From assembly GCA_043823745.1 (NCBI GenBank), contig JBDRAN010000035.1, forward strand, positions 13,795 through 77,794: a stretch of 64,000 bases of DNA. Reading direction: 5' to 3'. This document shows positions 12,936-62,100 of this stretch, piece after piece; within the stretch, counting starts at the first letter, position 1, and each line of letters begins with the position of its first letter. The stretch is from Candidatus Omnitrophota bacterium. Lineage in GTDB: Bacteria > Omnitrophota > Gorgyraeia > Duberdicusellales > 4484-171. The translations under genes were made by a program, and so were the position numbers. The notes under the pieces are model-generated. The model was not told the origin of the DNA, searched no databases, and worked only from the letters and a program-made list of their open reading frames with translations.

Positions 12936-12953
12936 CGCTAACCGCTATCCGCT

Positions 12954-15637: not shown

Positions 15638-15639
15638 AA

Positions 15640-15765
15640 TGAGTAAGCGTAGAGCGGTTAGCGTAGAGCGTATAGAAAAAAATTAGCGAAGATTAGAAAA
15701 TTCTAAATTCTATATTTTTCTCTAAACGCTATCCGCTCAACGCTCTACGCTAAACTTGACACCCT
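15640..15765. repeat. Intergenic palindromic repeat (GCGTAGAGCG... / ...CGCTCTACGC) between the oppB-like and oppC-like genes; related to 12935..12965
   Basis: Inverted copies of GCGTAGAGCGGTTAGCGTAGAGCG and CGCTCAACGCTCTACGC. A shared ACGCTATCCGCTC block also occurs at 12935-12960. Confidence 0.6.
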
Positions 15766-15780
15766 GTAAGCATTAGCCCC

Positions 15781-17177: not shown

Positions 17178-20100
17178 CTATCGAACAACGGGTCTGGCCG
17201 GCATATCTATGCGATTCCTGAAAACAATGGTATTTTGGCGGATATGCATAGCTCTTCCGTTTGTAAGGGGCATTTCCATTGGTAACAGGGCGCTGCTGGG
17301 GCTTGACGAAGCTCCTCGGTTTTTTTCCAAAGCGTTATGTAACCCTTTTGCTTCCCACGAGATTACTTTATATTCCCATTGCAATTCAATTATCTGCCTT
17401 TTGACCTGTTCATAAGAACTTTGAAGCTGCGGGACTAAGCGGGCCACTTCTTGTTCTATTGCCTTAAGCCGCGCCTCAATCACCTGAATTCGTTTCCGCA
17501 GAGCCTCTTCTGAATCACTCGATAGAGCCGCCCTGCGCATCGTATCTATAAGTATCCGTTCATCGTCTCTTGCCGCAATGTGCGGGTCCTGGTATACTTT
17601 CTCTCTTATTGCAAGCGCTTCTTCAGGCTTGATTCTTAACGGTATGACTCCGTCATCGCCGCTTCTTACCACACCCTTGACCCCTCCCGGTAAAAGTCGA
17701 TAAAACGCAATGGCTCCTTTCGCGTTGCATTCAGCGATAATTTTTCTATCCGTATTTAAAGATTCCCTGAAATTACCTTTCTCGCCAGGAGAAGACAGCC
17801 GGTACAACTCCTGATACTGAGGGATTCTATCAAGCAGCACTACTGTCAGATAAAAACCAACCTCCCGATTACCCCACACAATACCGGCGGCTTTCGCCCC
17901 AATGCGTCTCATAACTTCACTTTCCTCCGGCCCGGGTAAAATTTCTCCCTCGGCCAGCAGTCTACTCTGACCCGTCGCTACCTGTCTATACCTCCAGAGG
18001 ATAAAGGGATGCGAATGGATAATAAACTTGCCATGAGGGACTGGCTTAATTACCTTTATGTCTCTAAACTGAGCTTCTGTCTTTTTCCCTTTATAAAAAA
18101 GTATAGGGTTAAGGGTTGCGTTCCCGGCTACTGCCGCGGTAAAGACTGACTCAATGCTTTCAGTATCAAGCACATCAACGACGGAACCAAGGGCTTGACG
18201 CAATCGCTGATCTTCTCTTAAGAAATATTCAAAATCATTACAATCGCGTAACTTCCAGACTTCAGCCGAGGATGAAGAGACCACGCTTTGAGTACTAAAA
18301 AATGATACGCTCGGTTCTTGCTTCAAGGCCTGCGTATCAGGCACTGAACTGCTTGAACTCGTAGCTGATCCGCTCAAAAACATACGCATAAAGTCCCCCG
18401 CCACTCGAAGATGCCCGTCATCTCCGGCAAATAACCTTACCTGTTCATCGCTTAAAGACTGAAAAATAGCTTTGTCTCTTGTTAAAACAAGGTTCAACAA
18501 ATTTTCAAGCGTTTCGGTTAATTGTAAATCCTTTATCCTTTTTTGTGCGTGCAACAACGAGTATCGATCTCTTCTTACTTTTCCCGCAATAGACGCTAAG
18601 CAATCCCTTATCCACTCAAGGTTACCTCGGAATTTTTTCCGTATCCCGATCGTAACAAAGCAGTTACTCACATAAATACCAACCTCCTGGGCTAGCGCAT
18701 CATCAAGAGCTATTTTTGCTGATAAGAGATTGTCCAAGGGTTCATTACTGTTGAAAGTAGGGCTTGAAACAGCTTTTCTGCTGCTGATATTTTTTGCGCT
18801 GTGAACAAAAGAAACGTCTGGCTGCACTCGTCCGAATCGGTGAGACTGATGGATTATTCCGGCTACGCGTATTTTTTTCTCAGACAAGCTTGGATTCAAC
18901 AAAGTAAATGGTCCATCCGGCAAGCTGTGAAACCAGGTGCGCAATTGATGCTGGTGAGTAACCCCAAGGGCGATTGCTGCTGGTTTTTCGGCACCCGAAG
19001 CTATAATGGTATCGAATATGCCTTCAAGCCTGGAACTCGTATAGTCTTTTGTTTCTCCACCGGCCAACACCTGAAAAGCCCGCCAGGAAATTTCGCTCTG
19101 AGTTATTTTCCAAAGCCTGATCCGTTTTGCCACGGCACCGCCACTGATAGAGTGTGGCCTGCACCAAAGCCCAACTTCCTCTTTACTGAATCGCACTGTA
19201 GCTTTTATCTTAAACAATGCTGACAGGTATGATTGCGCCAGCAGGTCTACGAAACGCTGCTGCCGGAGGTCTCTCCTACTATACGTAACCAAGGCTACAG
19301 AAGAGCTGCCACTCTCACCTTCCGGCGCATTTGGTGAGCTGGCGCGGCCTTGCCCTGAGCCTGTCGAAGGGCCGCCCTTGTCAAGACTTTCCTTATTGGC
19401 TATGGCTTCCCTTATTCGCGTAAAAATATTATCCAAGTTCTTCTGCACTGTATTTCTTAGACGCCAATAGGGGCCACTGGGCGGAACAAAAAACCGGCCT
19501 GCGGTTGGCCGTTCATCTTCATAAACAAACAACTCTTTCTCACCCAAAACAAGATAAACCATATTTGCTGATTTTGGATACTGCTTTACGAAAGCATCCC
19601 TCATCTTTTCTGTCATCACAAAGATAATAACTGCTTCTTCTATTTCTGCGCTGGTAACTTTCCGCTGCTCATGCAAAATTAAAATCGGATCGCTCTGCTT
19701 ATCTACATCTGTACCGGGATCCGAAACAACCTCACACAAGGCCGCTGACCAAACCTCTATTCTGCCTCTCAAATCATCAGGAACCATTGAACACAAGATA
19801 CCCGCCACTATCGGCGAACGCTCTTTATTTTGATTACAAAGAACCAGGACCTTATGCCTCGAGGAATCCTGCGCGCCGCTATCAAGGTTTCTTTCTTCCG
19901 GCGAGGTACGGCCGGCTTTTCTTCCCACATCTCTGGTCCCACACCCTACGCCCTTCGGATTTTCCGCCGGCGAGCTAGCCCGGCCTTTGCTATCAAGGTG
20001 TTCGAGTTGGTTTGGATTTAATTCTTTAAGCTGCCGCCAAAATGTGTATTTGATAAAATGCCAACCCTGCCTGGCATTGCGATAATCATCGTCATTCCTT

Positions 20101-23100
20101 TCTGCATCTTTAAAACATGCGTCGAGTCTAAAATAAACAGCACAGGCTCTACTAAATAATCTGCAAAAAACACCTTTGTCTTTTATTCTTTTTAAAGTAC
20201 TTCCAATACTCTTTTGCAACAAAGGCTCTACAAGCGGTATATACCAGTCAGAAGCTAAGTGTTCTACGCCGCGATCAAGATCAGAAGCCAAATTCTCAAA
20301 CAAGATTATCGCTTCTTCAGCAGCTTTCTGTAAAGCTTTTTCAATATTGGCTTGGGGATTACGAATCCGAACAGCTTCTTCATATTTTTCCTGATACATT
20401 TCTCCAAAAGCAATCGCCCAATCTCTATGGCGGCCAGGATTTAACTCTACTCCTAAATCGTGATAACCCTGTGATACCCTTCTTAATATAGAAGCATTCG
20501 TTGAACTTATTCCGGGTAACTGGGCAAAATTCCAACAGACAACAGCCATTTCTGCCAAATAACCGAGGCGGCGTTCCATGCGAAATTTATCCTTGTGCTG
20601 CTTCGCATACTCAAAACCTTCTTGAGCAAACTCCGGATAACTTTGAGCAGTCTTAGCTTGGGGGTCTGCTGCGGTCATGGCCTCAACAATTACTTCTTCG
20701 GCATACTTTCTCAAACCAACATCAGGCATATAGCCCAGTTTTGAACGGATATATTTATCGTAAGCACCTTGCGATTGCTCTATAGCATAGTGATTTCTTT
20801 CATGGATTCCCAAATGAGTAGCGGCTTTGATTGCAACACCAAGAGAATATCTTCTGTAACCAAAATTTACGGTATAAGTTTTAGAGCCCATATCTTGCCG
20901 GATAAGAAACTTTGCGGAATGGCTATCTATTTCCTCATATCGATAATCAAAAGGAATACCGCCTACAGAGCGAAGAATACTGACGAATTGCTCCTTCTGC
21001 TTCTTTGTCCAGTCCCAAGAGGAAGAGGGGCTTGAGGTTTGGCTTTCGCTACTTACTTTAGAAATAATCGAACGTAGCGTTTCTGCTTCGAATTTTTCCC
21101 TATATCTATGGGCTTCCTCTTCAAGATGTTTCAATTTCTCAGGCATATCGCTCTGTTCAAAAAGGCTTGCTAACTCCCTATATAACTCCTCACTGCCGAC
21201 GAGGAATTTGATGCGATAAAACTTTTTACATTCAAGAAGACTGTTTCTATCCTTCTTGCTCATAAGCTCTTTTATCTGCGACATTGTCATCAAGGTATGT
21301 TCTGTCTCCCTGTCAAAATTGTCGCCGAGCTCTGCTAAGCCTCCCCTGACTGCTCGAGACAATCTATTTATAGTGATTGCTTGGTCACTAAAAGCGACTT
21401 TTTTCCATTCATAATCATCAGCTACAAGGACGACAAGATCTATATCGGAACCTCTAACAATTTCACCCTGTTCATTTATTCTTTCACGGTCATGGGCCAT
21501 ACCATAGGCAACACTTCCAGTCAAAGCAAAGAAACTTTTCTCTTCTATATGCCTTCTCCGATAAGGTGCTGCATTCGCAAGAATTCCATCATAACCTGTT
21601 ACCTTGCTTTCAACAATTGAAGCCAAAAACTCGTTGTAAGATTCTAATTTTGCTTTGTGCCTTGCTAAAGCCTTTTTAAATCGTTCATCGCCTTTTAGTC
21701 CTACCACAATAAAATCCATAAACTCCTGAACAATCGTAGGCTGAATTTGCGGGCCCCTGGTGGTGAATTTGAAATATCGCTCTCCCAGCATGGCTATCTC
21801 TATCTCCGGAGTAGTTTTAGCAACTGCCCAGAGATTCAAAGCCACTAACTCTTCATTTGCCTTATCATTTAAATAAAGAACACTTTTATCTCGGTAATGC
21901 CTAGGCTTGAAACCGGCAATTTCGCTAAAAAGATCCCGGCCCAGAAGCGGCCCGGTTCTTTCAAGAACACCAAGGACTTTCTTACCTAACTTCTTTATAG
22001 CTCTGGCTCTTTCTTGGCTTGATTCGCCTGGCTCCCCCGGTGAGCTGGCCTGGCCTGTGTCCCCCATAAAAGTTCTTCTCACCTGATTCTCATCATAAGG
22101 AAAAAACATTCTATAGCTATCCATCTTCTCCGGCTTAAGGTCTGCACCAAAAAGCGATTCTCCTGATGCCGCAAAGAAATCATCCATTTGAATTGGATTA
22201 GTTGCAAAATACCTTGCTACTTCTTTACCCGCCTGACTCTTTAAATCATCATAGAAATATTTATTAGTTATACCAATAGACTCTAAAAACATACCCACAT
22301 TCCCTGAATCACCCTCAAGATCCCCAAAATCAAAGACATAGATTCTCCCGGTATCCAAATCTACGCCATAATTGCCATAAGGATAAGTAAAATCAAAGTC
22401 CATCACCCCTCTTTTGAACATCGAGATTACAAACTGTTTATAGCTGTCAATGAGACTCTTAGCCTCAGATATCCTTCCCTCTTTGCTCAAATACTTTAGG
22501 CGACTAAAAACTGGTACTACCTTTTTTTGGACAATAGCTAAATCAGTTTTCTTCACGCCACCATATTTTAAAAAATAACTGAACGGTTTCCTTGAGCCGT
22601 CGGTGGCGTTGATAATTATCGTCGGTACAGCAAGGCCGCTTAATCTTTCCTCGGCCAACTTACAGCTTCGCTTTATCCAGAAACGTAAAACATTATCTAT
22701 CTTGTCGGGATATCGGGACTTTTTTACTACAAAATCAAAACCATCTTGTGAATATGCAATGAGATGTCTGCCGACACCGACATGGCGCAGAAGATAACTC
22801 TCCGGAGAAACTTCCGCGGGGGTAATGGGTTGCTTTTGCCGTAACAACCTATCTATTTCCTTAGCTAAAAACTTACCGTCAATGGCTCTGGTTACATCTA
22901 ATCCAAATCTAATAAGAATCTCTCTTCTACCACCTAAGGCCTTTTCTTGCCGTAATTCGGCAATAGCTTTTTCGGGCAAGCCTTGAACTCCCTCTTTAAA
23001 TTGCCTCAATAATTCCCACTTGCTTACACCTGTTCTCTTCTTGCCTTTAGCCGATGGAACGTATTGAATCGAAGGTTTGGGCGGCTCCTTTGGATCGTGG

Positions 23101-26100
23101 TCATCCGTCGGCGAGCTGGCGGCTTCTATCTTACTTGTAACTTTGTGACCTTGTGGCTTGTGACTTGTCAGTGCCGGCGAGCTGGCCCCGTTAGAGATTG
23201 ACGATCCATTACCTTCTGTATCTCTAACGGGGCTGGCTCGGGACTCATCAAGTCTTGTTCGAAGCTTAGCTCCGAACAAGGCGTTCTCTGTGGCAAGGGC
23301 ATAGACCAAGGCTGCTTCTGAAAGAGCTGAGCTGCTCCGGAAAGCAGTTGGCTGATCAGCACCAGTAGGTTGCTGTAAGTAGTAAAACCATGTCTTTCCT
23401 TTTCCGGGAATTTGCAGAGATTGTAATGGGTTGGGTCTTTGCTTGGATAAGTTTATAAGATACTTTCTTGCCGTATTAGGCCTTAAACCACACCTATTTG
23501 CGATTTCGTTTACTGATATAGCTTTATCTGCTGTATCTGGCAGCACTGCCATAATTTGCTGCTCGCTTCTTTGCTTGTCTATCGCTAACTGCTCCTGCCT
23601 AGTTAATTGTGGTTTTCTAACAGCCGCCGGCACTAAGCGTTCCGGTAGCTTAGCTATTAAATCCAGTACTTTTAGTTCATCTGCCCTAAACTGCCCATCC
23701 ACATACAAAACTGGAACTTTTTCTGTTTGGTTCAATAACTTTGCTGTGATTCTAAATGCAGAAGCATCAAAATCTACAATTAATCCGGCTTTAGTTCTAG
23801 AGTCGGCTTGCTTCAGCCTATTGCGCACACCTAAATGAGCTTCCGCAAGCCCAACAGAAGCGGCTATAATAAAAAGGGGTTGAGCAAAACCAACTCTCCT
23901 AAACAAAGCTCTAAAATTATTTTTTATAGCCTTAATATGAGGTGCCTCTTCAAATCGCCCTCCTGCCTGGGTATTTGCTGCTTTAAATTCTTGCAAACCC
24001 CAGATAAGTTGTTCCAAAAATCTTCTCTTCACAATTCGCCAGGCTTCCTCTTTTAACATAAATTTGCCCTGCCTACGACAAGCTAATTTTAATTGCACCC
24101 ACTGTTTTAAATTCTTATCTATAATTTCTCTATTTTCTCCTAAACCATCAGCTAATTGTCTAATTTGGGTGAGATTTTTTGACTCTTCTTTAGATAAAAA
24201 CTGGCCAATTCTCTGCCAGCATTCAGCTTTTCTGGAGAAATCATCAATTTCTTTATCTGTTTTCTGAACAAGCCTGGCATCGACAATAAAAATGGCCTTG
24301 CCTTCTAAGCTTTGTAAATCCTGCCCAATCGTCTTCCCACCATGAACCAGGGACCGTGGCCTACTTGCACCCGCTGAGCTGGCCCGGGGGCCTGGTTTGT
24401 TTTTCCCGCCTTTTTTTCCAGAAGATGAGGTAATCCCTGTGGGGATGTATTTACATCTTTTTATAAATTTTATAGCTTGAGATATACGTAACAACTCTGA
24501 TCCCGCTCGTCTATCTCTTTCTGCATCTGTCAAATGACTATTTAGAATTTCAATAACTGCCCTTCTTATATGATAAAAATTATTATCCATGAACCTGTCT
24601 AAGCTCACTTTTTCTGAGGCAGAAACATCTCGTCCGATTTCCAAACGGCTAAAGTTTCTGAATTCTTTTTTTAAATTAGATAACATCTTCTGTCTTGCTA
24701 AAATATACACAACCCGCATGTGAATCTGGATAGGAAGAAAACCAGTATCAACATCTGCGTCTTCTCTAATGAGTTTTAAAGTTTCTACGCCTACCTTATA
24801 GTGCCTAACCGATTTTTTATGGCTGTCTTCAAGGTCATAGAGACAGGCTATGCGAATATGCAAATTGGCTATATCATTGAGGATGAGCCTCTGTTTAGGA
24901 AAATCTTCCATGGCCATTGGGCTTCTGGCCTTAATTCTTCTTAACTCCCCACCTTTTTTTGCAATTTCTTCCCGAAGGCGCCTCCTTTGCTCTCTTGCCA
25001 AGGCAAGCGTAAACATATCGCTTACAGCCATCATCCGCCTGCATCTTCTATCTATTTTTTCATAAACCCCGAAAGGATCTACCCCCATAGCCCGGCCATG
25101 AGCTTCTTCAACAGCTTCGTAGGTAACCTGCTCGCCTCTTTTAAGAATCTGAGAATACTTTTCTACCTCCATCTGGTCATGATGCAGGACCGTAGCTATA
25201 TATCTAGGATCTTCTACATCCTCCAGGAACCTTGCCGGAATATAAACTATCTTGTTTTCCTTTCCAATGTGGGTTACTTGATAGTAAGTTTGGTCGTTTG
25301 TGTCTTTTCCGTAAAGTAGAAAATGGCTCGGCACATCTACCTCGACTACTGTGGTTTCTTTCTCAAACCTACTGGCCCTTGAAATTATTTCTCTATCCCT
25401 CTTACTCTTCGGCTTAATTTTCTTCAAAGCTTCAGTTGCCTGCCGTATCTTTTCGGCATTTGACGAATTTAAAGCCAGCGGCAAATTTTCCTGCCAAAGC
25501 TTCTTTTCATAGTAACTTCCTTCCTTTATTATCTTTTTGGGAAAAGCCCGGATAATTAAATCCACCTGATGGTGACGCGGAAACACATCTCCTTGCCCAA
25601 AAGAACTGTTGGGAGAATAAAAATCTTGCCAGCGCTCTACGGCGCTTGAACCTTTCTTGCCCACGGAAAGGTGGCCGGGAATAAATTCTTTTATAAAAAA
25701 TGTAAAAAGGCCTTTTTTAGTTAAATAAGCCTTGGGGGAAATTATTTTAGCCTGTTCAAACATCTTTTTAACAAATAACTCAGATACGCATGAATTGTGC
25801 ACAGTCTTAGCCGGAGAGCTGGAAGCAATGCTTTTTATCTTTCTTTTATCAGGCGAGCTGGCGGTAGGATAGCTCATAGTTCGTAACTCATAGCTCCTCG
25901 ATGATAGGTCAGTTAGAGATGACGATCTGGTCCTGAGCTGGCCCTCTCGCCTGTAATGCTGTTCATCGTGAGCAACAGGTGAAGAGCTTTGTCTATCTTG
26001 CCTGTTAACCCTGACTCTAATTATAAAAACTTTTCCTTCTTTAGGGCCGGGTTGGACTGCAATCCTGCTTTTCCCTACAGAGAGGGAAGGACTGTCATCG

Positions 26101-29100
26101 TTTCCATCTAGAATATTAGAAATAACTCTCTCGAACTTAAAAAGAATGATCGGCAGTTTAACAATTCTTTCTCTCTCTCGGTATCGCAATATGATTGTTC
26201 CGTTATCTTGAGGTGTAGCTTCAAACCCATACTCTCTGAATACCCCGTTAAGCTTATCAATAATTTCATAAATAGAACCCGAAACATGAATGCGAATTGT
26301 GCGCTTATTAGGTAAAGTCATTCCGCAAGAATCTGGTAAAATATTAAACATTATCTGACTTGACCTTATGCCATTTTCCGGCGAGCTAGCCCGGCCGCCG
26401 TTGTCGAAGGGACCCTCTTCTGATTGGTGAGATGATGAGCTCAGCGTTGTCTGTAGCAGTTTAAGGTACGCATCGACCTTCCTCAAATAGCCCTCGTCCC
26501 CGAGTAACAATCCCCGCTGAGTCGTTAAAACTCCGGGATGCGTGGAAAGAAAATCTGTAAAATCGGTGTTTGCTCTGATCCAAATACTGACTCTCTCAGC
26601 AATATCCCCAAGGGAGAAATCATCCGATAATGAGTCGAAATAACACCATTTAATGGAAACGGCCATGCTGTCAAATCCATGAATAACGCCCAGTGTTCGT
26701 TGGAGTCGAGTCATGCTAAGGCTCGGCAGGAGGTTCATGGCTTCCTGGGCATAGTTGGTAGCCAAAAATAGGTATACACAGCAGCGGATCTCACGGCTCT
26801 TCTGCTTGCTCCATGAAATAAGTATTCTTTCAAGATCCCGAACATGAAATGTAGCCCCCCAGAGTTTCATCGTCGCATCCATATCTTTAAACCATATCCA
26901 CACATCTCTTAAGGCGCAATAGGCCGAAATGTCATCTATGCCCATAACCGCCGATTTCGCGGTCTTGAGTAATCGTTGAAGAATAGCCAAATTATCCGAA
27001 AAATTCATGAAAGCACTTTGCTCGGGCCTCTTAATCAAAGAATTATCAGCTTGACCCGAATCAACCGATGCTCGCAGGCGAGCTACCTCTTCGCTAAAAT
27101 AATCCAAGCCTTGCGATGACGAGCTGGCGGCTTCTCTCTTACTTGTGACCTTGTGACCTTGTGAGGCCGGCGAGCTGACTCTATGCTTCGTAAAATAATA
27201 CATATCTGTTGCTTTCGGAAATTGCTGATTCCGAGGCAATCCGAATTTTACCATCAGTCCGGCTTGATTTTCCTTTGATACCAACCCTGTTATAATTAAA
27301 GTTCCCGTTTGAATAAGAAGGTCATATAAATTGTCCGCTGCCGGCTCGATATCCATATCGCCACAAAAGACAAGCGCAGAATATATGGTGTCAAACCTAA
27401 GGGCTTTCCAGGACGCGGGAATGTTTTCGATACTTCCTTTTATAAAACGTCCGTCGTTATTATTAAAATTTTCTACGCCATTTCCCATTACCGGCTCTAT
27501 TGCGTGCACTTTTGCCGGATCGAAGCCAAGACGGTTAATCAAAAACAAACCGATTGAACACCGCCCGCCGCATCCTACTTCAAGAAACATCTGTTCTTTC
27601 AAAGTCTTTAACTTCTCCCCTACAACACCCAGCCCCTCATTCCCGACAAGTGCATCCACAAACTTCTTTAAATCCAGACGTTCACCATCGTCGAGCAATG
27701 CGTCCCTTTTTATCGCCGAAAATAATGTAGCAGCCATCACCGAAGGGCTAGGCGAGCTGACTGACACAATCTGCCGTTGCTGCATATCCCTAGCTAACTC
27801 TTGAATAAAAACATCGATCTTTTCTTTGGTAACGTGCTGCATAGCCATGATGTGCACAAAATCTCCATACGGGGCCAGCTGCCATCTATCTATCAACTCT
27901 TGAGAGGGCCTGGCAAATATCACAGTATTGGAAAACTCATTCAGCTCCGAAGGACATCCTATTTTCTGCAGCTTCCGGTAAAGATATTGCGCATTCTCCA
28001 TGCATAAACCCGCTTCTTTCCTGAAGCCTTCATATCCTTTTGTCGTAACAGCGTGCCATAAATAAAATAACACCTGCCCGCTCTGGGCGGTTAATAACTC
28101 TTCTACCTGTCGCATAAAATTTTGGCTAGCGCAGCTTTCGCGAACCATGAATATACCCGAAGGCATCGGCAGCCCCATAAACTTGTGCCCGGATATGGCA
28201 ACACTATGGACGCTTTTGGCTAAGTCTATCTTTGGCGCACCTTCTAAAAACGGCAGCATCATACCGGAAAGAGCGGCGTCACAATGAATATGAAAGTCGG
28301 CAACATGGCATTGGCTTAGAATACCTATTACTCTTTCCGGACTATCTATAGCGCCCCTCATAGTCGTTCCGATATTAAGGTTTAAAATGACCGGCCGACC
28401 GCGATTGGCTTTTATCGCCTTCTCCAATTTGCTATAATCGATCTCACCGTTGGGTAAAGATGGGATCTTTATCGCTATCCTTTCCTCGTTGTATATTGAA
28501 TAATCGGAATCTTCTCGGTATTTAATTATCTGCATATTCAATAGCCTAGCTATCTTGTCTATCGAATAATGCGAATCTTCGCTATAATAAAGTATTCCGG
28601 TGGGCCTGCCGGGGAAGCGTTGTATTCCGGCTAAGATTCCTATCAGATTTCCCCATGTCCCGCCAGCAGTTACTCCACTAAAAACATCCTCATCTTCGAC
28701 ACCGTACAACTTTGTGAAAAAATCAAGCGCCTCCTGTCCAAATGCTTGCGCGTCTTCTTTTCGTAAAATATATTTAAACAGATTCTGCAAGTCGCCATAC
28801 GACTCTTTGCTTGCTGTTATATTCGCGGGAAATCCCAAAAATCTTTCCATCAGCTTTTTCAAGCGTCCTTCAAGTCTATCCAAAGTATCAAGGACTTCCC
28901 GGGAAGGCTGATAGGCGATTTCTTCACTGACCTCAATATCGCCGGGAGTCAATACCCCCTGCTGTAAGGTACCACCCAAATGGTCTTTCAATAAATCGTT
29001 CACAAATTCCGCTATCTCTATGTTTGTCAAATAAGGTATGGCCTCGAAGCATGATTCCCGACCGTAAGATAAAAGCCCCCACTTTCTACGCACCTCAAAG

Positions 29101-50100: not shown

Positions 50101-53100
50101 AGATGGAGTCTTTCGGGCGCGGCCTCAGGAATCCCGCGATGCGTATCAGGTACCGATGTCACAACGGCTGACTTGACTGAGGTTAGTGAACTGCTGCTAT
50201 TCTTTGTAGCTCTTGTTGGGCTGCGCCCCAGCGCGTCCCGTAGGGGACTGCGCCGCAATTCAGCCATTACGTCGTCAAATATACCCCTGAAGGCTGATAT
50301 AACAGGAACAATACACCGCTCTATCTCTGCTTGCGAAGGAGCTCTGTGATGGGAGAGACGACGCGCCCATCCCGAGAATTTACCTGAGAGCGTTTTTTCT
50401 ATTTCCGTAACAAAAAGGGTAGGTAAATATTCATCTAAAGCCTGCCTCAATACAATACCAACAACATCAGAGGACAGACGACGCTCAAGCTCTTGTCTAC
50501 GGGTAGCTTTAGCTTGCTGCAATTGCCTCTTATCAGCCAATTGCGCAGGCGCACTATTCGCAAGCCAAGCCTCTACTTTCCTGTCAAGGTAGTAGCCTCT
50601 AAAAAACGTGTCGCGGTCCGGCCTGGCGTAATTCTTAAGCGCCTCCATCATGAAAGCAATAATCGACTTTTCGATAAAAAATACATTGTCCGGTTTCCTG
50701 ATGTGGTGACAATTAAAGGTAGCTCCCCACCGCGCGATGAACGGTAGAATAGTTTTTATGACTTCTGACAATCTATTTTGAGTTTTCTCCTCAAACAGCC
50801 TCATCGCTCGACTATGCTGTCTATTTTTTGTAAATACAGCAAGCGCCTCTTGTTGTACGTCACTATAAAAAACCTGAATTGACCTCTCCAAAATGTTCAG
50901 GGACTCAGGGGAAAAATTTTTCCTAAGCACACCAAGTGATTCATTTACTCCAGAGCCAGCTACTCCACTTAATCGAGCCATTCGCTTGATGAGGGAACCG
51001 ATAATCTCTAATTCTTCAACAATCTCCTTGTGAGGCTTCCTCTGCGAAGCGGAACTAGAAGAATTGCAGTTAGACTTTGAATTGTGATTTTTCAAATCTA
51101 CCGATGAGCTACTGCGCGGATACCCTTTACCCATGCGCGGATGAGTTATCTGCAAGAGATTAGTATGCGCGACCCATTCGGCTCCTTGTGGTCTTTTCCC
51201 GATCGTTGTACGGCCATCCTCTGTGCTCACCCATACGGGAAATCGCACATCGGCGGCATCAGCCGACAGTTCGGCCTGGCGTGCGGAGGTGGCTTGATCT
51301 AATGCTTTGCGTTTAAAATCATCCCACCGGCCGGGGCTCCATATTTCAAGACGGTCGCCAACGCCGACAAACACTGCGATATCGGCCAGGCCAGCGAATT
51401 CCCGTAAAGCACGCGGTATATGTAATCGAGAATTCCTGTCTATCGCAGCCATGGGTATTCTGTCTTGTGGTTTTTTATCTCCGAAACAAAGATAGCCTTC
51501 ATCTCCTTTATATAGATAAAGCTTGGAAGAAGCCAAATCCTTCCGCCAGGCCGCGGGAATTAACAGCCGGCCTCGGTCGAGTGAGCGCGAATGCGTACCG
51601 ACAAAGATTCTTGAGGAAACCGATGAGCTGCCATAACGGGGTACAATACTGCTTGAAGCAATAAATTCTTCTGCCAGACCCTTAATATAGGAAGATGCTT
51701 CTTGGTCCTCGAACTCTTGAGGTGTTTCCCCAATCAGCGCATCTTGGTATCTTCGTGGATTGATTTGTAAAAACGGGATACCTTCACGAGCATGCGAAGT
51801 TACGTAATAGCGGTGAGCGGCTTGTTTACCATAAGGCACTACATAGAGACTCTCGGCTGCGGTTTTAAGCGCTGCCAATACGGTTCTTTCTTTTTCCGAA
51901 GAGGCACGAGTAGACATCGCCTCATGCAATATCCTTTGCGCGCTGTCAAGATAGAGGGCGCCGTCATCGGCAAGATCCCCAAAACGTATTGTACTCTTAC
52001 GCCTCAATAAAGCAGTCACCTCTTTAGAAGTAACAATTTCCGCCTGCTCGCCCAAATGTTTATTCATCATGAACGTAAGCGCATGCACAAGGCTATTACG
52101 CTGTTCAAATACCTTAAGCCGTTGTAGAAAATCTTGAACGTTGCCAAGCCCTGTCTGTTGAGCGAAAAAATCACCGATTAAGCCAAAAAAACCGAGTGAA
52201 GATGCGCGAGGTTGATACTGCGGGCTTGAACTGTCTGCTGCTTGCGGCGAGCTGGCCTGGTAAAGGCGTTTTGCGTCCGCGGGGCTTTGCACCTGTTGTG
52301 CCCGAAGGTTATTCAAAGGACTAGAACTCTTAAGAGAGTCCGCTATAAGTGTTTCTATAAAACCTCCCTCATTCTCTTCCGCTCCAATCATTCGCGCACG
52401 ACCGAATTGTTCATTCCTAAACGCAGATGTTGTGTCGTTAAAACCATAGTGAAGAAAACGTCTCATGCCGGCTTCTTTTGCAGCAGGAATGTACCGGTCA
52501 ACCTGATTATCAATAAACACCGGGTATTTTGGCTCGCCATACTGCTTTCTATATTTATCAAGAGCAATCTCAAATATTTTTTTCCCGTCCGATTTCACGG
52601 TTCCATGTTCACCGGTAATCACAATTAAGTCCGGATCGATAAGGCCCGGGTAACACCGATCAAATAGTTTCATCATCCACTTTCTGCCAGCCGCCTCAAA
52701 GTTCGATATAACTCCGAATCTTATTCCTCTCTCCGATTGAACTCTCAATAAATCATCGAGCCTTTCTTGAATCCATGGATTTGCGCTCATGGGGCCGAAA
52801 TAGGCCTCCTCAAACTCATCTTGAGTAACCGGCCGAACTGCACCGTAACCTAACAAATACCTACTGATAAGGTCAACCCAACGCTTAAACGTTTCTGGGT
52901 TGCGATGTAAATCATGCCGGGCAATTATCTCAGAACCTTCATCAACTTCTTCCGGCGGAATGATCAGTCGGTGTAAACCCTCTCTGAAACTCGGCTTTTT
53001 CTCCGTTTGCCACCCTTCACTATCGGTTAAACCTGAATATGTTCCTAATCTTCTGAGTGTTTCATCGAAGAAATCTTCAATCTGAGTGCCTAAAACCCGC

Positions 53101-56100
53101 CCATAGTCAAAAAATACAATGTTGGTTTGTCTACTCTGTTGCGGAGAACTGGCAGCGGCAGGATTATAAGGTATTTTAACCGCGACAAAAGGATTTTGGC
53201 CGGTGCTTTCGGAAGGCGAGCTGCCCCTTGTTCGTCGTGCGTATTGAGTATCGAGTATTGAGTTTGAATCCGACGAACTGGCGGCAGGATCGGAAAAAGG
53301 CCGCTGTCCCATTTTTTCTGTTCTGCCATTTAGCCCTAAGCCCCTGGCCGGCGACGAGGCGGAAATAATAATATTTGGCAACATTACAGTGACTGTAGTC
53401 CCCACATTTTCCGTGCTATCAATTGTTACTGTACCGGATAACCGACAAACTATAAGTCTAACCCAATTAAGCCCTACCCCGCCTCTATGACCAGGATAAA
53501 TAAAGCTTCTTTTAGCATTTTCGGCTCGATACCCGTTCATTTTCCGAACCAGTTCTAGCTCTGCTTGAGGAATACCAATACCTTGATCTCTCACTAGAAG
53601 AGTTAAATATTTACTTTTTGAACCATAATCAATATCAATTGCAATGACCGTCTCAGGATTATCTTTTTTACAGTATTTATAGGCATTTTGAAATAAGTGA
53701 TACAAAATACTTGTCACCTGTTTAAATAAAGCTTCATCTAAAATCTTATCTGCCAGGCCATCAGGAATGGAAATCATAACTCTAAACTGCTCTAAAACCC
53801 TTGCTGTTTTGATTACCTCATCCACGGTAACACTCATAGATAAAGAAACGTTTTCACCGCTTAAACCGGCTAAAATCATATTCCTTCTAGTCGGATCTTG
53901 AGGAATAAAATGCTCCACAATTACATGCGGAACAATCTGCTGCAGAGAGCGAACATCTCCTTTATAAAGCCCCACAAGTTCTCCTATACTGTAACATTTC
54001 TCACCCGGTGAGCTGGCTTGGGTTTCAATTGCTGTTTTACCACGAATATTTCTTAGGTTGTTCGAGGAATTTTTTTGGATAAACTGTCTTAAGATTGATT
54101 CCCTGGGAATTACGACATCAACGGGGGCGAGACGAACCGGTTTCAAAAGAGAAATCAACCTCCGCATAACCGTCAACATCTCCTCCTGTCTCACTTCTTT
54201 CAAGTCACTCTGCAATATACCCCAAACTTCTCTTTTGAGTATAGGCAATTCATAAGGCGCGTAGGCTTGAACGGTCACATCGGCATGTACCCACTGCGGA
54301 TAGAGGTCATCAAGCATCTGTCCGTGTTGTTTTAAAAAAATGGCAATTGTATCTTTTGGTTTTTGCTGTTCAGTGAGCCACTTGTCCAGAATCTCCCGGA
54401 GCAGGCGCGCATGAAGAGACGTAAAGGGATAGTTTCCTTTCAATTTTAAACTGGGCGCGGTATTGACAAAAACCTTAAACACAGGTACGCTTTTTGCGGA
54501 AAGCTCTTTCAGTAATCCAGGAGAGAACGCCTCGATACCTTCAACAATCAAGGTTTCATCGGCGGCAAGCCTTAAACTGCGCGGGTTGACTGAACCGTAA
54601 TAATACTGCTCGGCGCAATTTAAGTTAACCCTGGCACCGCCTAAGAGGCCGATAACGTCAGTGGGGGCATGATAATCGAGGTGCAAGACTTTGGCTTTTT
54701 CACCGTTCCTTAGGAGCTCGCGTTTCAGATTGTGGGAAAAAGCTGCTTTTCCTACGGCCAAAGGACCGGTTACCAGAACCACCCCCCGTTCGTGAAAGAA
54801 ATTCTTGGCAATCTGGACGGTAATTGAACGCAGGCCTTCCTCAGCGCGCTCCTCCACGGCCTTGATAAGCTTCTTTAACCGCCCCTCGTCAACAAAAGAA
54901 TTTAACTCTTCAAGCGTATCTGGAAAATGCAAGCTGAATTTAGCCACGTAGGGATGACGGCCGTTCTTATACCGTACTTTCAATCGGTTATCAGCGGCCA
55001 CACAGGCGTCGCTGACTTTCATCACAGCCAGGATCATTGCCGCGGCGCGCAGGTCCACATGGTAAGCTTTTGCCACTTTTATTACCTGCTCAAAAGCATT
55101 GACCATCCGCTCCTGGAGCATCTTATCCACTGCGATCAGGTGCCAATGCTCATCCTGTATATTCTGGGCCCATTCAAAATAAGATACTGTTACCCCACCG
55201 GAATTGGCTAAGATATCCGGCACAATGAGTATGCCTCGCTCAAGAAGAACCTCTTCAGCTTCGGGTGTAGTGGGGCCGTTTGCACCCTCAACTATCAAAC
55301 GGGCTTTAATCCTTTCGGCGTTGCCGGCATGAATTTGATTTTGGACTGCCGCCGGAATTAGGATATCAACCTTGGCTTCGAGAACTGCTCCGCCCGCTAC
55401 CCGGACAACATCAGGATAATCAAAATCCTTAAGCTTCCTACCTTGAGAAAGGTATGTCTCTAAAATCGCAAGGAGTCTATTGTTTATTCCTTTAGGAATA
55501 TGAATTCCTCCAGAATCATCGCTGATATAAAAAATCTTACGGCAGCCGCTTTTCTGTAAAATTTTAATCAGCTCAAAGCCAACATTGCCTGTGCCCTGAA
55601 TAGAGTAACTACATTTTCTAAAATCTTGAGGAAGTTTAAGCTTTTGAGCGTAACACCGCACAGATTCGCGGATAATAAAATAAAGCCCCTGGCCGGTTGC
55701 TTTGCCTCTTCCCTGCGAACCGCCGGCACTAAGAGGTTTACCGGTAATTACCGCCGGTTGCGGACCTTGAGCTTTAATTTTTTCATATTCAGATCTCATC
55801 CAAGCCATATATTGAGGGTCAACGCCGACATCAGGTGCCGGTATATCGCTGAATGGACCGATTGCCTCAGGATCTTTTTTGAGCAGCTGGCGCACATAAC
55901 CGCGGCAAAGTGTTTCCATTTCAGTCAGGGAAAGCGCCTGAGGATTAACGACAATGCCTCCCTTTGCCCCGCCAAAAGGAACGCCGACCACCGCTGTTTT
56001 CCAAGTCATATCCGTAGCCAAGGCCCGTATCATACCGCTGGTAACTGCCGGATGAAACCGAATTCCACCCTTACCTGCGCCCCGGGCCTTGTTATGGCAA

Positions 56101-59100
56101 ATACGGTAGCCTTTAAAATACATGGTCATTCCCTCTTGCTTAAAACAACCGGTATTGCTACGGGTCCTTGAGCCTTTATCCGTTTTAACCGGAATATCTA
56201 CCTCAACTACTTTGGCCGCATGAAACAATTTATTAAGAATCTTTCTGTCAAGCTTTATTCTTTGAGCAATGGCAAACAGATGTCGGGAGACATTTCTAAA
56301 ATAAGCATCGTCTAAATCGTCTTTGTCCCGCCGGCTCAACCTAAGGCCTGCTTTATGGGCTAAAGCAACAACCGCGGCTTTTTCCTCTGCCGGCGAACTG
56401 GCTGCCTTCCTGGAATGGAAAAAAACGGCGATTCCAGGCATAGTGCCTGCCCCATGAATATCCACGCCATCCAGAACCTGCATATTTTCCTTCATCAATC
56501 TGCCTTGAACGGGATTAATGAATCCCATTCTTTTTTCCCCATTATCTATAGTAGCTACGGCAATGCCCAAGTGTAAATGCGGCTGCACGTCGCTGGAATT
56601 ATGGAAGGCTATATGCCCCACGATAGTTTTACCGGCCTTTACCTCATCGCCCACTCGTAAATTTCCCGGAGCAATATGCCCATAAAATATATCCGCCTTC
56701 TGCTGATAATCAACTACCACTTGCTCATTGCCAACATAAACAACACTGCCGTCGCAAACCGCTCTCACGGGCGTACCTACAGGAATCTTTTTTGCGGTAT
56801 AACGCCGGCTGCCCTTGCTATCAACCATGTAATATACCCAATCCAATCCGGTATGTGGCTGAACCCGGGAGGCAAAACCATGAAGATAATCCCAGGTCTG
56901 CGTGTGTCCGAAGAGGCTTCCCTGAGGAAAAAACCATCCTATGCAGTCATCAGGCACATCCACCCTGTCAAATGGAGAATGAATAATTATATCCCCGGGA
57001 GAACTGATCACCGAGGAAGAACCTCCACCTGATTCCCCTATCTTTATCGCTCTTTTATACAAATGACGACTACCCCGGCCTTTCAATCCCAACACACGGG
57101 TAGGAGTACTCGTTCCCGACCGGTTCCACGCTTGGGTAGTCTGCAACCCCAATTCATAATCCGGGCTGATCCAAACCCTGTTACCTGAGGCAGCGTCGAT
57201 CTGCAAGCTCCTGCAAGAGATATTTCCTCCTGTACAATAATCACAGCGTACTCCTTCATTCTGAAGAGAGGAACTTACGTTTCGAGGCATATTCTTATAT
57301 GCCTTATAATACTGAATACCGACGCGGACATCGTCCTGGCACAGTTCTACGTCAAATTTTAATTTATCCCTGAAAAATTCACCGTACCCTTGAGTATCGG
57401 AACATAACCAATACGTAACAAGCTGCTCTACGCCTATATTTTCTAAATATCTGACAAGAACGGAATACCAGGCTGTCCCGGTTTTGACTTCTTTATTGCC
57501 GCGGACGCTTTTATCTAACGCTAACCTGAAATAAGCGCTCTTTTTGTAAACACAGATAGAAAGATACGCGAGCTCATTCTGTTTGTAACGCAAACTAAAC
57601 GTAAGATAGTCATCTATAAATTCATCTAAACCAAACCACATTGCCTGCCAGTCTTCCAGTTCTAACCGGTGCCCCGGAGAAACCACAACGGTGAGTTTAT
57701 TTTCCGATTCGGGAAGACGTTTTGTTATTTCATCAACGGGGAATAACAACGCAGGGTTTTGTTTTATCTTCTCAAGAGACTCCGCGGAAAATCTATATAC
57801 ATGCTTGCTGGACACTGACGAGCTGGCTGGAGGTGAACGCCCCGGCCTGCTTTTCCAAGACAATAAATCAATCATATCGTTGGTGTCCTGAACAAAAATT
57901 ACCTTTACCGGCGAACTAGTACACTCTGCGTCTAAACTTGAAACCTGATTAATTCCGTTTATAAAATCATCCGTGCTCATCCAGTAATAGAGTTTTATCC
58001 TTACATATTTATTTTCAGTATTTTCCTGTCCCTTCCGCGTTCCGTTCAGATACACCGCCACTTCATAATCCCTAAACCCTCTTCTCAAAGCATCCTCTTG
58101 CTCTAATGTCCGGCCTTCCCCGCTCTTAACCAAAGCAATAACATCATTGATGGGGTATTTATCTCCGGAGGGAAAATGGAATACCTTATCGGCAATAATG
58201 TGATATGAAACACTTGTGTGGTCTCTCTTCTGCCAGTCGAGGATCGAGTGAAACGCGCGGCGCAGGCAAAATCCCGCATCATAATAACTACCGCAGAAAA
58301 CCACATTGCAATCCCTCTCTTTAGAACGCACCGGCCAACGGATAAATGCGCTCCTCTCGATTTCCCCGGCCGCGGAAGGAATAGCGACAGGCTTTAGTTT
58401 CTCTGCCTGTTCGAAATCTAAGGGATACATTAAAATGAGCTTCTGTCCGAAGATAACGCCTCTTTTCTCTAAAGCATTAAGAAGCCAATCATAATCCCGG
58501 TGTTGATGAGCCTCAACGCCCACCGTGAATCGTGAGTCAAGAACCACTCTACTCTCACCGGAGGCGGCAAGCTTACGTGTCACTGACGAACTGACTCCAG
58601 ACGCATCATGTGCGCCCTGCTGAGCCATGAACTTATCGAAATATGCTGCTAGCGTTTCGTGCGTCCGGGCTGCTGGAATATCGGTATCCCGAAAACCTGC
58701 GGAGCTTGCGACAGCGTACAACGGCTCTCGGGCATATTCAGGCTCGCGCCAGAAATAATCTGAAGTTACCGAGGGTTCGGCTTGGCGCCAGGCAATGAGG
58801 AGCGCCCCTCCCTGGAATTGCGAGAATGGATAGCCGACAGGAATTTTTTTACGTGCAACTACGGTAAATCCTTTGTTCTTGAGCTCGCGTTTTATTTCTT
58901 TATCTTTTCCGTTTGCAATGTCTTTTGGTTTGACAGAAACAAGCAGTAAGCCTTCATGCGCGAGAACGTTCACAGCTTGCATAAGCACTTCTGTGTCAAC
59001 CGCGCCATGAAGAATGATGATATCGCATGATGCCGGAAGATGTTTATTTTTCCCTGATACCCACCTAAGCATAATGCTCCTTGTTTCTTCACCGACCTCA

Positions 59101-62100
59101 AAAGTTTGCGGTATGTTTTCCAGTGCGCGCCTCAATTGCCTGCGGAAGAGTGTATGTGTAGTACCTAAATCAGTTATCGTAATTTCTCCATAAGGCAGGC
59201 GACTTATTACTATCTCTTGAATGCTTTTCGCACCGGCAACGGTATCTAAGAAAGTTTTCTCTTTCCTGACAGAAGAAGAGCTGGTGACCGACCGTATCTG
59301 CTCAGCAGGATCCGGCGTGTTCGCATCGACTCTGGATACACGGCCATGGCTAACGAGTTGCCTTTTGCTTTGATCCGTTGGAGATTGAATCCAGTATTCT
59401 GTCGGACGGCCGGTTTCATAATCAGGCGACTCGATTTCCTTTCGAATCTTGTGATCAACAGAAATCCACTTACTGCGAGCATAGCGGTCCTTAATCCGCC
59501 CCAAGAAAAGCACTTTTGCTTTTATTAGAACCGCGGCTGCCGGCGCTTCGGGCGGCATTCGCCAGTTAAGCCCTTCAACAACGAAAGAATTTCCTCCCCT
59601 TACCCATACCTGTGTGATCCTCTCTGATTCCTTAAGCGGCCGGAATAAATAATATGATTTATTCTTACTCACACCCGCTCTTACATAATAGACATGCTGT
59701 TTCTTGCTGGCGCACCAGAAACTTAAAAAGTCAGGGGGGCTCCTTCCAAGAACCTCGGCAGGAACCATTCTTGCACCTTCTTCCGTTACGTGCCTGCCTA
59801 TTATACTAACTTTCTTTTTTAAGATCTGGGTTAACTGTCGAGGGTTACAAATGCAAGCAGGATAAAAGTCGGCGTCTCTTGTCACTTGCGTTGTAAAATC
59901 TCTTCTCACCGCGACATGAGCGCTATGAACGTTGAAATTAATTTTCGCATTCTGAATGCTGAGTTCCCGCAACGGGCTCAGGCCTTGCCACTCAGTTGTC
60001 CCGATTCCCACTGCTGATAACCACTTCGTCAACTGCAGTTCAAACTCTCGAAACAACTTAAAATCACGCAGGTTCACGGTAACTAAACCGCTTTTAGTCG
60101 GTGCTCTCTTTGAGGAAACCACCGCCCCTGTCCTCATAAACACATTTTTTCCTTCTTTGTGGTCTCTGGCAATGACCACGTAGAGGCTTGAATTAAGCGC
60201 GTCTTGCCACACGCAATAGCGCGGTTTTTTCGAGCGGTCTGTATATACTTGCAGGAATGTATCAGACTTCACGCTTCTACTTCCCAGGGCCTCAGCACGA
60301 AGCTGCTGCTCATGAAAACGAACTACATTACCCTGGTGGGTATAGGGTTTTCTGTTCCCGGTAATCCAGGCGGCAACCCTGCTTTCCTTCTCAGCGGGCG
60401 TAAGCTCATCTCCATAAGCCCCCATCACCATATCTTCAAAGTGGTAAAATAATTTATTTTCAAATAACGATATGTTCTGTTTCTTCGCTATCCGCTGTGT
60501 TTGGGAAACACGCTCCGGGTCAGGTAAATATTCGGGTATGATCACAAAATGCTTCGGTTCCGTCTTTATGCGAATACGCTGGACGGGATTACTCTTATTT
60601 TCAAAAATAATTTCCCCTGGCCTGCTCTTAATATTTATTCCGCTCTCGATATATCGAGGGTACCTGCATACGCTGCCGGAATAGGGAAGGTTTATCTCTA
60701 CGTACCCTTGTTGATATCCTGGCGAGCTGGCGGTAGGATAGTTCGTAAGCTCATAAGCTGATAAGCTCGTAGACTTTCGAAACTGATAACGTTGTGACCT
60801 GGTCCCCTTCGGGGAGGCTTCACTTCGTTGCGCACTGCCCTGCTGGTTTTTTTGAGAAGGTGAGCTGACAACGTCTACTTCGGAATTATACGGACTGATT
60901 TTAAGGAGATATTTCGACTGAAGCGGCCCAAGCCGGCCATATCGAAATAACTGGATATAAAAAGGTAATTCAAGACTGATAAGGCCCTCAAGCTTTTGCC
61001 TGGTTTCTCTGCCAGAACACCCCTTCGCGCCAACACCCAGCCTAAAAGGCTCTTCGTTCACCCTAACGGCATGGATACGCCCATGCCGAAGGACCCAAAC
61101 ACTGACTAACGTTTCAAATTCAGGCCATGATTGAATTAGACGTACATCAGTAAGAGGTTTTTGCAGCGGGGAGCTGGCTCCGTCAGACTCAAGATTCAAA
61201 AGCGCCCGGTGGTGATCGATAAGCCACTGCATCTCATCGGCGCGCTCAGGATACCTCTTTTTTAAAGAATCGCGTAATTGCCTGTCCTGTTGCCGCGCCG
61301 CTTCGCGCGTGCTATCCGGCCCCCAGCGAGCGTATCGTTGAGAACGACCCGTATAGTGGCGGCAGTTTTCTTTCCCGGCACGTTTGCTTGCCCGCGCCTC
61401 CGGCATTACGCTCTGTTCTATTCTCGGATAATCCTGTTCTCGTCGTATAATATCAATTGCCTGCAACAGATTGCTTGCCTTGAAACTTTGCTTATATACT
61501 TCATCCAATAATTTTATTTTAGATAAAAGGGGTATTTTTCTATCCATAAAGCCTTCGAAACAGGCAAGCGCGAGAAAGAAAATATTCGCATACCACATCG
61601 TCAAGCCGTTATAAACAGGAGCATGAGCATGATAGTGGGCAATTTTTAATAGATATGTTACAAGAGGCTTTCCGCCTTCAGAGCGATGAATGATGTCAAT
61701 AACGATGGGCTTATTTTTTCTGCTCTCAAATACAGCCTCGATGTCTTTGATGGCTGCCTGAGCCTGACCGTTCATGCCCGCGGCGGTAGCGTTAATAATA
61801 ATATCGGCCTCTTTGAGCCGGCTTAACAATAGGGGGCTATCCCGGGCATCCTCTGTCTCGATCAATTCCAAATCCGGTGCAGCCTGCTGCGGCCTATTGC
61901 CCGGAACAATCGATGCAATGCTCCCCGTAAGGTGCGATGCACAGCATAATTCTTTAAAAATAGTTTTGGCATTCTCAAATGAAGCGCTTCGATGGCTGAT
62001 GCTGATGCGTAGCGGTTTATGCATCTTCTCCTGCGCAAGAGCTTGGGCAATCGCCTGGCCAGCCCCCCCGAAACCCAACACCACTACTTTTTTACCGCGC

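Follow-up and report, generated by a model that had tools for sequence, protein, structure and literature searches.

A short in-frame seam word recurs at module junctions of a giant multi-enzyme gene in Candidatus Omnitrophota

The window analysed here is a stretch of 64,000 nucleotides from contig JBDRAN010000035.1 (positions 13,795 to 77,794, forward strand) of the Candidatus Omnitrophota assembly GCA_043823745.1. It carries one giant minus-strand open reading frame (ORF), within which a short nucleotide word encoding Ala-Ser-Ser-Pro, hereafter the seam word, recurs in frame. The ORF (17178-63959) runs for 15,593 codons without a stop and is open through position 64000; it has no start codon in the window, and the 41 nt upstream of the listed GTG (63960-64000) are open as well. 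These 41 nt match a 7.5-kb contig, JAHJZK010000305.1 (locus L162, 1-7557), of the metagenome-assembled genome (MAG) GCA_018827245.1. The product of this contig matches aa 1-791 of the giant protein at 100% identity and adds at least 1,727 upstream codons; the gene therefore spans at least 17,300 aa and is split into fragments in the public assembly. The Pfam families found in the ORF were M23, glutamate dehydrogenase (GDH), HATPase_c, MraZ, GT4/GT1, a transglutaminase core, Trypsin_2 and a pyridoxal phosphate (PLP) decarboxylase. None of them dominates, Pfam coverage of the protein is only ~10%, and a simple hydropathy scan gave three transmembrane (TM)-like segments.

Genes of this class are known, since giant "multi-enzyme" proteins of Omnitrophota have been described (West-Roberts et al. 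2023, bioRxiv 10.1101/2023.11.21.568195; 2026 preprint 10.64898/2026.06.07.730766). With an Omnitrophota host, a single ORF of more than 10,000 aa and many unrelated Pfam domains, the present gene matches "class 1, multi-enzyme metabolic clusters" of the latter preprint (10.64898/2026.06.07.730766), and it is a Candidatus Omnitrophota "multi-enzyme" giant gene. It differs in having only three TM-like segments, where most of the described giants have many.

The 8-mer GAGCTGGC was found 31 times in the window, against 1.95 ± 1.29 copies expected from 100 dinucleotide-preserving shuffles, none of which reached 31 (0/100, maximum 5). All 31 copies lie on the plus strand and inside the giant ORF, and are thus read as GCCAGCTC on the coding (minus) strand. 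Thirty of the 31 stand in frame 0 and encode Ala-Ser-Ser, the lone exception (25935-25942) being in frame +1. The preliminary description of this DNA had counted about 30 copies with one or two expected by chance, and each of its 28 coordinates lies within 12 nt of a true copy; those at 19336, 25935 and 32863 had been missed. Its statement that the word always keeps the same reading frame holds for every copy except the one at 25935-25942, and its figure of about ten one-mismatch variants was far too low, as 36 exist, 25 of them in frame 0. No copy at all lies in the adjoining 17.2 kb of co-oriented housekeeping genes, whereas the density of the giant gene predicts 11.4 (P about 1e-5). The word being peculiar to the giant gene and to a single frame, a strand-biased octamer of the Chi or KOPS type was ruled out.

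A longer form of the word, the 12-mer GCCAGCTCGCCG, is present in 13 exact copies with unrelated flanks, and when up to two mismatches are allowed all 44 copies are in frame 0. The coding-strand consensus is G-GCC-AGC-TCG-CCG-GC, that is (R/G/Q)-A-S-S-P-(A/G), with an in-frame word of 12-15 nt. With a relaxed site defined as any codon followed in frame by AGC-TCN, the giant ORF contains 59 sites, and their consensus is [R/G/K/Q]-[A/V/S/G]-S-S-[P/S/A]-[A/G/S/V]. Position -1 of the motif is occupied by R (7), G (5), Q (4) and others, and position +4 by A (11) and G (7), in keeping with the R/G-ASSP-A/G context first described.

At the protein level, ASS occurs 57 times (8 expected), and ASSP, with 32 occurrences (0.36 expected), is the commonest tetrapeptide. 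The codons GCC-AGC-TCN are used in 30 of the 57 ASS (53%), while the gene's own codon usage predicts 4.5%, and codon choice is non-random at all four codons of the word. An artefact of composition or codon bias, in which a Ser/Pro-rich low-complexity protein simply reuses its favoured codons, might be suggested by the high Ser content (8%) and the SSSS runs of the protein. We regard it as refuted by the counts in the shuffles, in the codon usage and in the flanking genes; the position-specific association of the word with module boundaries, described below, also speaks against it, and we attach virtually no probability to it.

The way in which the copies vary points to the peptide. Single-base variants of the 12-mer are synonymous in 12 cases and non-synonymous in one, where 28% synonymous changes would be expected, and 4 of the 18 two-base variants are fully synonymous (6% expected). 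There are 106 instances of the wider peptide class [AVSGT]SS[PSA], where composition predicts roughly 7 by our own estimate, and 55 of the 106 are written in non-canonical codons. In the upstream 5 kb of the giant gene, SSS/SSP/SSA seams are found in mixed codons and without any GCCAGCTC. Given the near-purely synonymous variation, the copies in other codons and the scattered codons of other lineages (see below), the peptide, and not an RNA or DNA signal, is, judged by sequence comparison, the constrained unit, and the copies with identical codons have the look of a subset that is younger or has been homogenised. Conservation at the DNA/RNA level, as initially proposed, is thus only half borne out: codon identity is indeed far above expectation, but the variation is almost purely synonymous and the peptide recurs in other codons.

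These data also bear on an RNA-level signal, by which the word would direct endonucleolytic processing of the ~50-kb mRNA or would impose a codon-specific pause for the folding of modules. The non-random choice at all four codons and the G-ending UCG-CCG codons common to genomes of lower GC would agree with it, and the cutting of giant transcripts is an open question in the literature. However, no Rfam family was matched at the gathering score (0 matches), the RNA folds at 12 sites were neither consistent nor significant (z-scores from -2.0 to +1.7, mostly positive), third positions drift freely, UCG and CCG are not rare in the genome (CCG is the commonest Pro codon), and Shine-Dalgarno (SD)-like 4-mers are not enriched upstream of the word (9 sites, 7.1 expected). 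We therefore consider such a signal improbable. Among its specific forms, a structured RNA or Rfam element was ruled out by the absence of Rfam matches and of significant folds, and a rare-codon pause by the commonness of UCG and CCG; an internal SD or restart site was rejected on the same SD-like counts and on the codon after the purine-rich stretch, which is GCC and not a start codon.

Four independent measures place the sites at module boundaries. Around the 59 sites, to a distance of 12 aa, hydrophobic residues make up a fraction of 0.20, compared with 0.33 at random positions (0 of 2000 random sets were as low), and sites inside Pfam envelopes number 0 under the strict and 1 of 59 under the relaxed definition (P about 0.02). 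MraZ, HATPase, the transglutaminase core and the PLP decarboxylase each occupy a site-to-site interval of their own, that of MraZ being 173 aa long. The alignment of two paralogous modules of ~350 aa, A and B (69% identical), starts at AGSSG/ASSAG and stops at RSSS/SSSA, and in a self-BLAST in chunks 16 of the 28 ends of internal paralogue alignments lay within 25 aa of a site (4.9 expected).

Homology to other proteins breaks at the same places. A profile-free HMMER search with aa 12,500-13,699 as the query returned three separate homology blocks whose limits coincide with sites, and 36 of 116 homology ends of shared modules lie within 25 aa of a site (20.4 expected, P = 0.0004). For the module at aa 13,614-13,971, most alignments to other proteins end ~7 aa or less from the ASSP at 13,971. 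In the partner proteins, the shared modules stand at different positions and beside different neighbours, and they are also found near the N-terminus of much shorter proteins, such as P0037 with 662 aa. The embedded GDH can be aligned with residues 8-415 of a free-standing GDH of 421 aa, and it keeps every invariant column of a 35-sequence alignment; among the matches listed, its closest relatives are mostly free-standing enzymes of about 400-450 aa. In an AlphaFold model across the M23/GDH seam (GCC-AGT-TCG-CCG), confidence climbs from below 50 to above 87; only this rise was used, because the M23 half has no alignment depth and its low confidence is uninformative. The seam words are thereby supported as junctions between whole modules, lying in short, hydrophilic linkers of low model confidence, and the joined modules, among them a whole GDH, MraZ, an S1 protease and ATPase-type modules, are shown to be complete proteins, independent in origin and strung together with no stop codon in between. 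The earlier placement of the sites between domains agrees with the linker composition, with the avoidance of Pfam envelopes and with the ends of paralogues and shared modules alike, and the idea of cassette boundaries used in duplication and shuffling fits paralogues and shared modules that begin and end at sites.

The genes that neighbour the giant ORF are ordinary, namely Mla, ClpC, McsB, a class IV aminotransferase, FtsX-type and oligopeptide ABC-transporter components, and a class II aminoacyl-tRNA synthetase taken to be LysS, for which a look-up by exact sequence gave no record. The adjacent OppB-like permease has its best matches, at 59-69% identity, mostly in Candidatus Omnitrophota MAGs, including that of Ca. 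Susulua stagnicola, while other matches carry the generic label "uncultured Planctomycetia". Five loci matched through the OppB-like gene have a long open frame in the equivalent position. These syntenic giant genes have no detectable protein similarity to the present gene or to one another; for aa 6040-7200 of the present protein, no homologue was found at E <= 1e-5 in the database searched.

Seam-like words are nevertheless present in these relatives. L121 and L124, with 38-40% GC, carry TCC/ACC-AGC-TCG-CCG-GT (x-SSP-V/I) and AGC-TCG-TCG-GT (SSSV) seams, AGC-TCG being 5-7 times above codon expectation there, and AGCTCGCC is 47 times denser in the giant frames of the relatives than elsewhere in the same loci. 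In L132 (3-9449), ten in-frame GAY-GGC-GGN sites (DGG, often K-DGG-R/D) were found instead of the SSP word, and the DGG and ASSP words are fused twice in the present gene as DGGRASSP (Table 1). The long multi-module proteins that HMMER returned as partners have recurrent seam peptides of their own, GSSPV, TSSVAGGVSSPA, SLDNGG, KPGEQDMA and RSEMR, and one partner seam peptide is also written TSSVAGG(V/A)SSPA. In each partner protein the copy of the shared module is flanked by that partner's own word, and the partner words checked at the DNA level (SLDNGG and KPGEQDMA) use scattered synonymous codons. Seam peptides that differ from genome to genome thus seem to characterise these giant genes in general. 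Pronounced codon identity is seen in the present genome and, less markedly, in L121 and L124.

The codon identity raises the question of a pure DNA-level recombination signal, either a recombinase core site or microhomology for cassette shuffling, to which Ala-Ser-Ser-Pro would be incidental. Such a signal would agree with the 13 identical 12-mers in unrelated flanks, with the direct orientation of all copies, with the breaks of module duplicates and shared modules at the word, with the one copy that is intact and out of frame, and with the recurrence of the codons AGC-TCG-CCG in L121 and L124, whose proteins are unrelated to the present one. It agrees poorly with variants that are concentrated at synonymous positions (12 to 1), as a binding or pairing site would not exempt third positions, and with the recurrence of the peptide class in other codons and of the words of other lineages in scattered ones. 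Moreover, neither the window ORFs of at least 200 aa nor the giant ORF gave a match to an integrase or recombinase, and the word lacks the dyad symmetry of attC or dif sites. We consider this explanation unlikely, though it is the first we would turn to after those built on the peptide.

Many of the seams also contain tandem heptamer arrays, and 20 of the 24 arrays within the ORF lie within 75 nt of a word. The islands so formed are bounded by two words, with the layout word - (GTCACAA)n - GTGAAGAAGT... - (CACGACY)n - AAGAGG - word, and a composite of word and array, the 24-mer AGCTCGCCGGCCTCACAAGGTCAC, is present in three exact copies. This 24-mer is absent from the reference genomes and the JGI metagenomes, and a 15-mer scan of viral contigs gave one match per contig, apparently by chance. 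The arrays contain no stop codon in any coding-strand frame, and their reverse complement contains TGA, which would explain the single orientation. The out-of-frame word at 25935-25942 lies between islands of 49 and 80 nt (1 and 2 mod 3), with the frame restored, and the whole stretch (25855-25990) is a compensated frameshift, consistent with heptamer slippage in tolerant linkers. Arrays are not confined to the ORF, as the intergenic spacers of the window consist of 7-nt tandem arrays in pairs, the two inverted relative to each other (GAGTATT...AATACTC, for instance) and flanking a short core. These lie at 9995-10102, 12775-12953, 1189-1413 and 15638-15780; of the equivalent spacers, that of L121 (18430-18537) has the paired arrays AGTTATA and AAAACTT and that of L129 (10971-11020) has one heptamer array. 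We know of no description of paired inverted heptamer arrays for this phylum.

A miniature mobile or expanding repeat could be read from these arrays. Under this explanation the word and its 7-nt arrays would insert anywhere and survive only where the insertion is in frame, free of stops and in a tolerant linker, the solo words being collapsed remnants. Besides the closeness of 20 of the 24 arrays to a word, the recurrence of composite units (the threefold 24-mer and the two-word islands), an intergenic array element that shares the fixed island core GTGAAGAAGT, the TGA of the reverse complement, which would account for both orientation and frame, and the compensated frameshift would fit. But the word never occurs in the intergenic heptamer elements of the window, about half of the words have no adjacent array, the word is under purifying selection at the peptide level, and L121 and L124 carry it without any in-ORF array, so that we find a mobile repeat doubtful, slightly more so than a recombination signal. 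Since the word is present in L121 and L124 without such arrays, the arrays look like secondary colonists of unconstrained seams and not the origin of the word. That the islands duplicate their target sites is not clearly supported, the left and right words sharing variant bases inconsistently.

The explanation that we favour, and hold to be reasonably probable as a whole, is that the seam peptide serves as the standard module boundary of the gene, acting as a hinge and most probably as a recognition or processing site that would separate the modules. MraZ and GDH are normally free proteins or oligomers, and it is this fact, together with a seam peptide that is genome-specific like viral protease sites and with the embedded S1 module, that leads to the processing part of the explanation. 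The excess codon identity would be a footprint of gene growth: modules would have been duplicated, inserted and exchanged with breakpoints in the seams, and the seam DNA would thereby have been repeatedly copied or homogenised. The short direct repeats at the seams would favour further duplication and deletion, and slippage-prone 7-nt arrays of the kind seen in the intergenic spacers would have colonised the same unconstrained seams. The DNA recombination site, the mobile repeat, the RNA signal and the composition artefact are all ranked lower than this explanation.

Candidate proteases are encoded within the gene itself. The embedded Trypsin_2 (S1) module (36773-37379, aa ~8,862-9,062) has plausible catalytic motifs, TAGH and GFSGAP, the M23 domain has HLH, and three HExxH motifs are located at aa 5668, 6358 and 14386; proteolytic cutting at the seams would be plausible. 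More broadly, the giants of Omnitrophota might be true bacterial polyproteins ("stop-less operons"), each with a genome-specific seam peptide and a cognate, possibly embedded protease that would recognise it and set free dozens of complete enzymes and regulators, and with seams that would also serve as recombination points for the exchange of modules between giants. We put this forward tentatively, as the less likely outcome.

Some observations weigh against the favoured explanation. The residue before the motif (R, G, Q and others, as counted above) is too variable for a simple trypsin-like rule, a Pro directly after Ser-Ser is unfavourable for many proteases, and the word could be a hinge only. 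The position between domains rests on few domains, given the low Pfam coverage, and on homology breakpoints, and one shared module starts about 65-70 aa downstream of the nearest site. Two of the five syntenic relatives (L129 and L132) have no SSP word in the 9-10 kb covered, the comparative DNA consisting of gene ends or fragments only. That three genomes of 38-46% GC have the G-ending codons AGC-TCG-CCG in common is not fully explained by peptide selection and recent copying, and it hints at an additional nucleotide-level constraint or a common source sequence. Finally, the intact out-of-frame copy is a DNA word without the peptide.

Among known systems, viral polyproteins are similar in that complete proteins are joined in one ORF, the boundary peptide is conserved with synonymous drift and differs between lineages, and proteases are embedded. 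The present gene differs in its bacterial host, its dozens of seams, a P1-like residue that is not fixed and a codon identity far above what peptide selection needs. Short boundary sequences between exchangeable modules, thought to be recombination points, include VENN in CdiA, PxxxxDPxGL in Rhs and the linkers of polyketide synthase (PKS) and non-ribosomal peptide synthetase (NRPS) megasynthases, and the Rhs boundary motif is also a cleavage point. However, polymorphic toxins and PKS/NRPS have one boundary per protein or homologous repeated modules, whereas the present gene joins dozens of unrelated whole enzymes and its conserved DNA is only about 12-15 nt long. The short tandemly repeated repetitive (STRR) heptamer arrays of cyanobacteria, reportedly treated by Elhai and colleagues in 2008, are said to contain nested small dispersed repeats. 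Like these, the arrays seen here are many, dispersed and of 7-nt units, with a small conserved sequence embedded at their edges; unlike them, they belong to another phylum, have a word that is read in frame within an ORF and is selected at the peptide level, and show no conserved hairpin, and those in intergenic DNA do not carry the word. Integron cassette arrays (attC) share with the giant gene the unrelated cassettes in one orientation and a recurring short site at the cassette ends; here, in contrast, the word has no imperfect attC palindrome or consistent hairpin and the cassettes are translationally fused.

Table 1 Seam words, linker islands and modules of the giant gene (window coordinates; aa, residues of the giant protein)
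Feature	Coordinates	Strand	Remarks
Giant ORF	17178..64000	-	15,593 codons in window; continues upstream on L162
Seam word aa 928	61171..61178	-	DG-ASSP-LQ
Seam word aa 1077	60724..60731	-	PT-ASSP-GY; (ATGAGCT)n array before
Seam word aa 2045	57820..57827	-	PP-ASSS-VS
M23/GDH seam	56391..56402	-	GCC-AGT-TCG-CCG, ASSP aa 2520-2523; one-base synonymous 12-mer variant
Glutamate dehydrogenase module, complete	54981..56321	-	aa ~2547-2993; all invariant columns kept
Seam word aa 3315	54010..54017	-	TQ-ASSP-GE; N-terminal edge of HATPase module
Seam word aa 3902	52249..52256	-	YQ-ASSP-QA
MraZ module	51111..51632	-	between GSSSV (aa 4110) and SSSSV (aa 4283), AGC-TCA-TCG-GTN seam variants
Seam word aa 5484	47503..47510	-	DE-ASSP-AL
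Seam word aa 5790	46585..46592	-	ER-ASSP-RA; (GCATCGA)n array before
Linker island	45718..45833	-	word aa 6043 - (GTCACCA/GTCACAA)n - core - (CACGACT)n - word aa 6079 (ASSL)
Linker island	43648..43793	-	between words aa 6723 and 6769; starts with 24-mer AGCTCGCCGGCCTCACAAGGTCAC
Seam word aa 7194	42373..42380	-	EG-ASSP-GK; C-terminal edge of transglutaminase-core module
Seam word aa 7358	41881..41888	-	KP-ASSP-TE
Seam word aa 7655	40990..40997	-	DK-ASSP-GR
Seam word aa 8120 with array	39548..39606	-	(GTCACMA)n; degenerate word GCT-GGC-TCC-CCG at end
Seam word aa 8334	38953..38960	-	QV-ASSP-AE
Seam word aa 8821	37492..37499	-	GK-ASSA-GQ; N-terminal edge of S1 protease module
Paralogous module A	35733..36770	-	aa 9064-9409; AGSSG at start, RSSS at end
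Double linker island	34324..34547	-	three words (aa 9805, 9841, 9877), four heptamer arrays
Seam word aa 10050	33805..33812	-	FH-ASSP-QK
Seam word aa 10364	32863..32870	-	KG-ASSP-AS; array after
Seam word aa 10488	32491..32498	-	IR-ASSP-CS; (CTATGGA)n array before
Extended word GGCGGCCGGGCCAGCTCGCCGG	31544..31565	-	D-G-G-R-A-S-S-P, aa 10798-10805; second copy 26378-26399, one mismatch
Short linker island	27121..27179	-	GTC-AGC-TCG-CCG (aa 12261) - (GTCACAA)n - GCC-AGC-TCG (aa 12278)
80-nt island	25855..25942	-	between out-of-frame copy (25935-25942, +1) and in-frame copy aa 12700
Paralogous module B	23325..24383	-	aa 13193-13545, 69% identical to A; ASSAG word at start, SSSA at end
Short linker island	23113..23186	-	between two exact 12-mers, aa 13592 and 13614
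Module aa 13614-13971	22042..23120	-	between two words; common to at least 15 other long proteins
Seam word aa 14873	19336..19343	-	GR-ASSP-NA

Three further features were noted alongside. The module at aa ~12,780-13,173, which has no Pfam match, is present in at least two copies in the giant gene, the second (60% identical) lying upstream in L162, and it recurs in about 30 other long proteins, which places it among the most widely shared; the coordinates tied to the module copied in L162 are aa 1-91 (63689-63959) and aa 13083-13173. Several seam peptides have a Met after acidic or Gly residues (KPGEQDMA, GGQDMGQ, RSEMR and KDMPGG, in P0013/L163 7168-19200, P0044, P0046 and P0025), and such Met might mark internal translation starts, either fossil or still live, of the kind that a "stop-less operon" would have. 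Among the neighbouring genes, the 836 nt of 7554-8389, listed as intergenic, contain an unlisted small ORF upstream of the McsB-like gene, too short for the 200-aa ORF filter; with its paired CxxC and UVR-like C-terminus it is probably McsA.

Seam peptides, linkers, junction motifs, heptamers, ASSP and cleavage points are unreported in the two papers on these genes (10.1101/2023.11.21.568195 and 10.64898/2026.06.07.730766). As neither mentions them, genome-specific seam words add to a known kind of gene a new feature that can be tested directly. In the literature searched, no paper couples Omnitrophota with polyproteins and none describes seam words. West-Roberts et al. (10.1101/2023.11.21.568195) stated that missing information on cleavage points blocked the splitting of the proteins for analysis, and left open whether the products are cleaved.

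Giant bacterial genes are a recent discovery, and whether their product works as one chain or is cut is an open question in published work. The seam peptides give exact coordinates for it, as split points for structure prediction and as places to look for neo-termini in proteomics and for breakpoints in long-read population data, and with the seam words come the first concrete candidates for the points at which giants are assembled, shuffled or cleaved. Cutting at the seams, if it occurs, would be the first case of a polyprotein strategy on a large scale in bacteria. Should the seams serve only as hinges or recombination anchors, they would still explain how dozens of unrelated complete enzymes come to be fused and reshuffled in one ORF.

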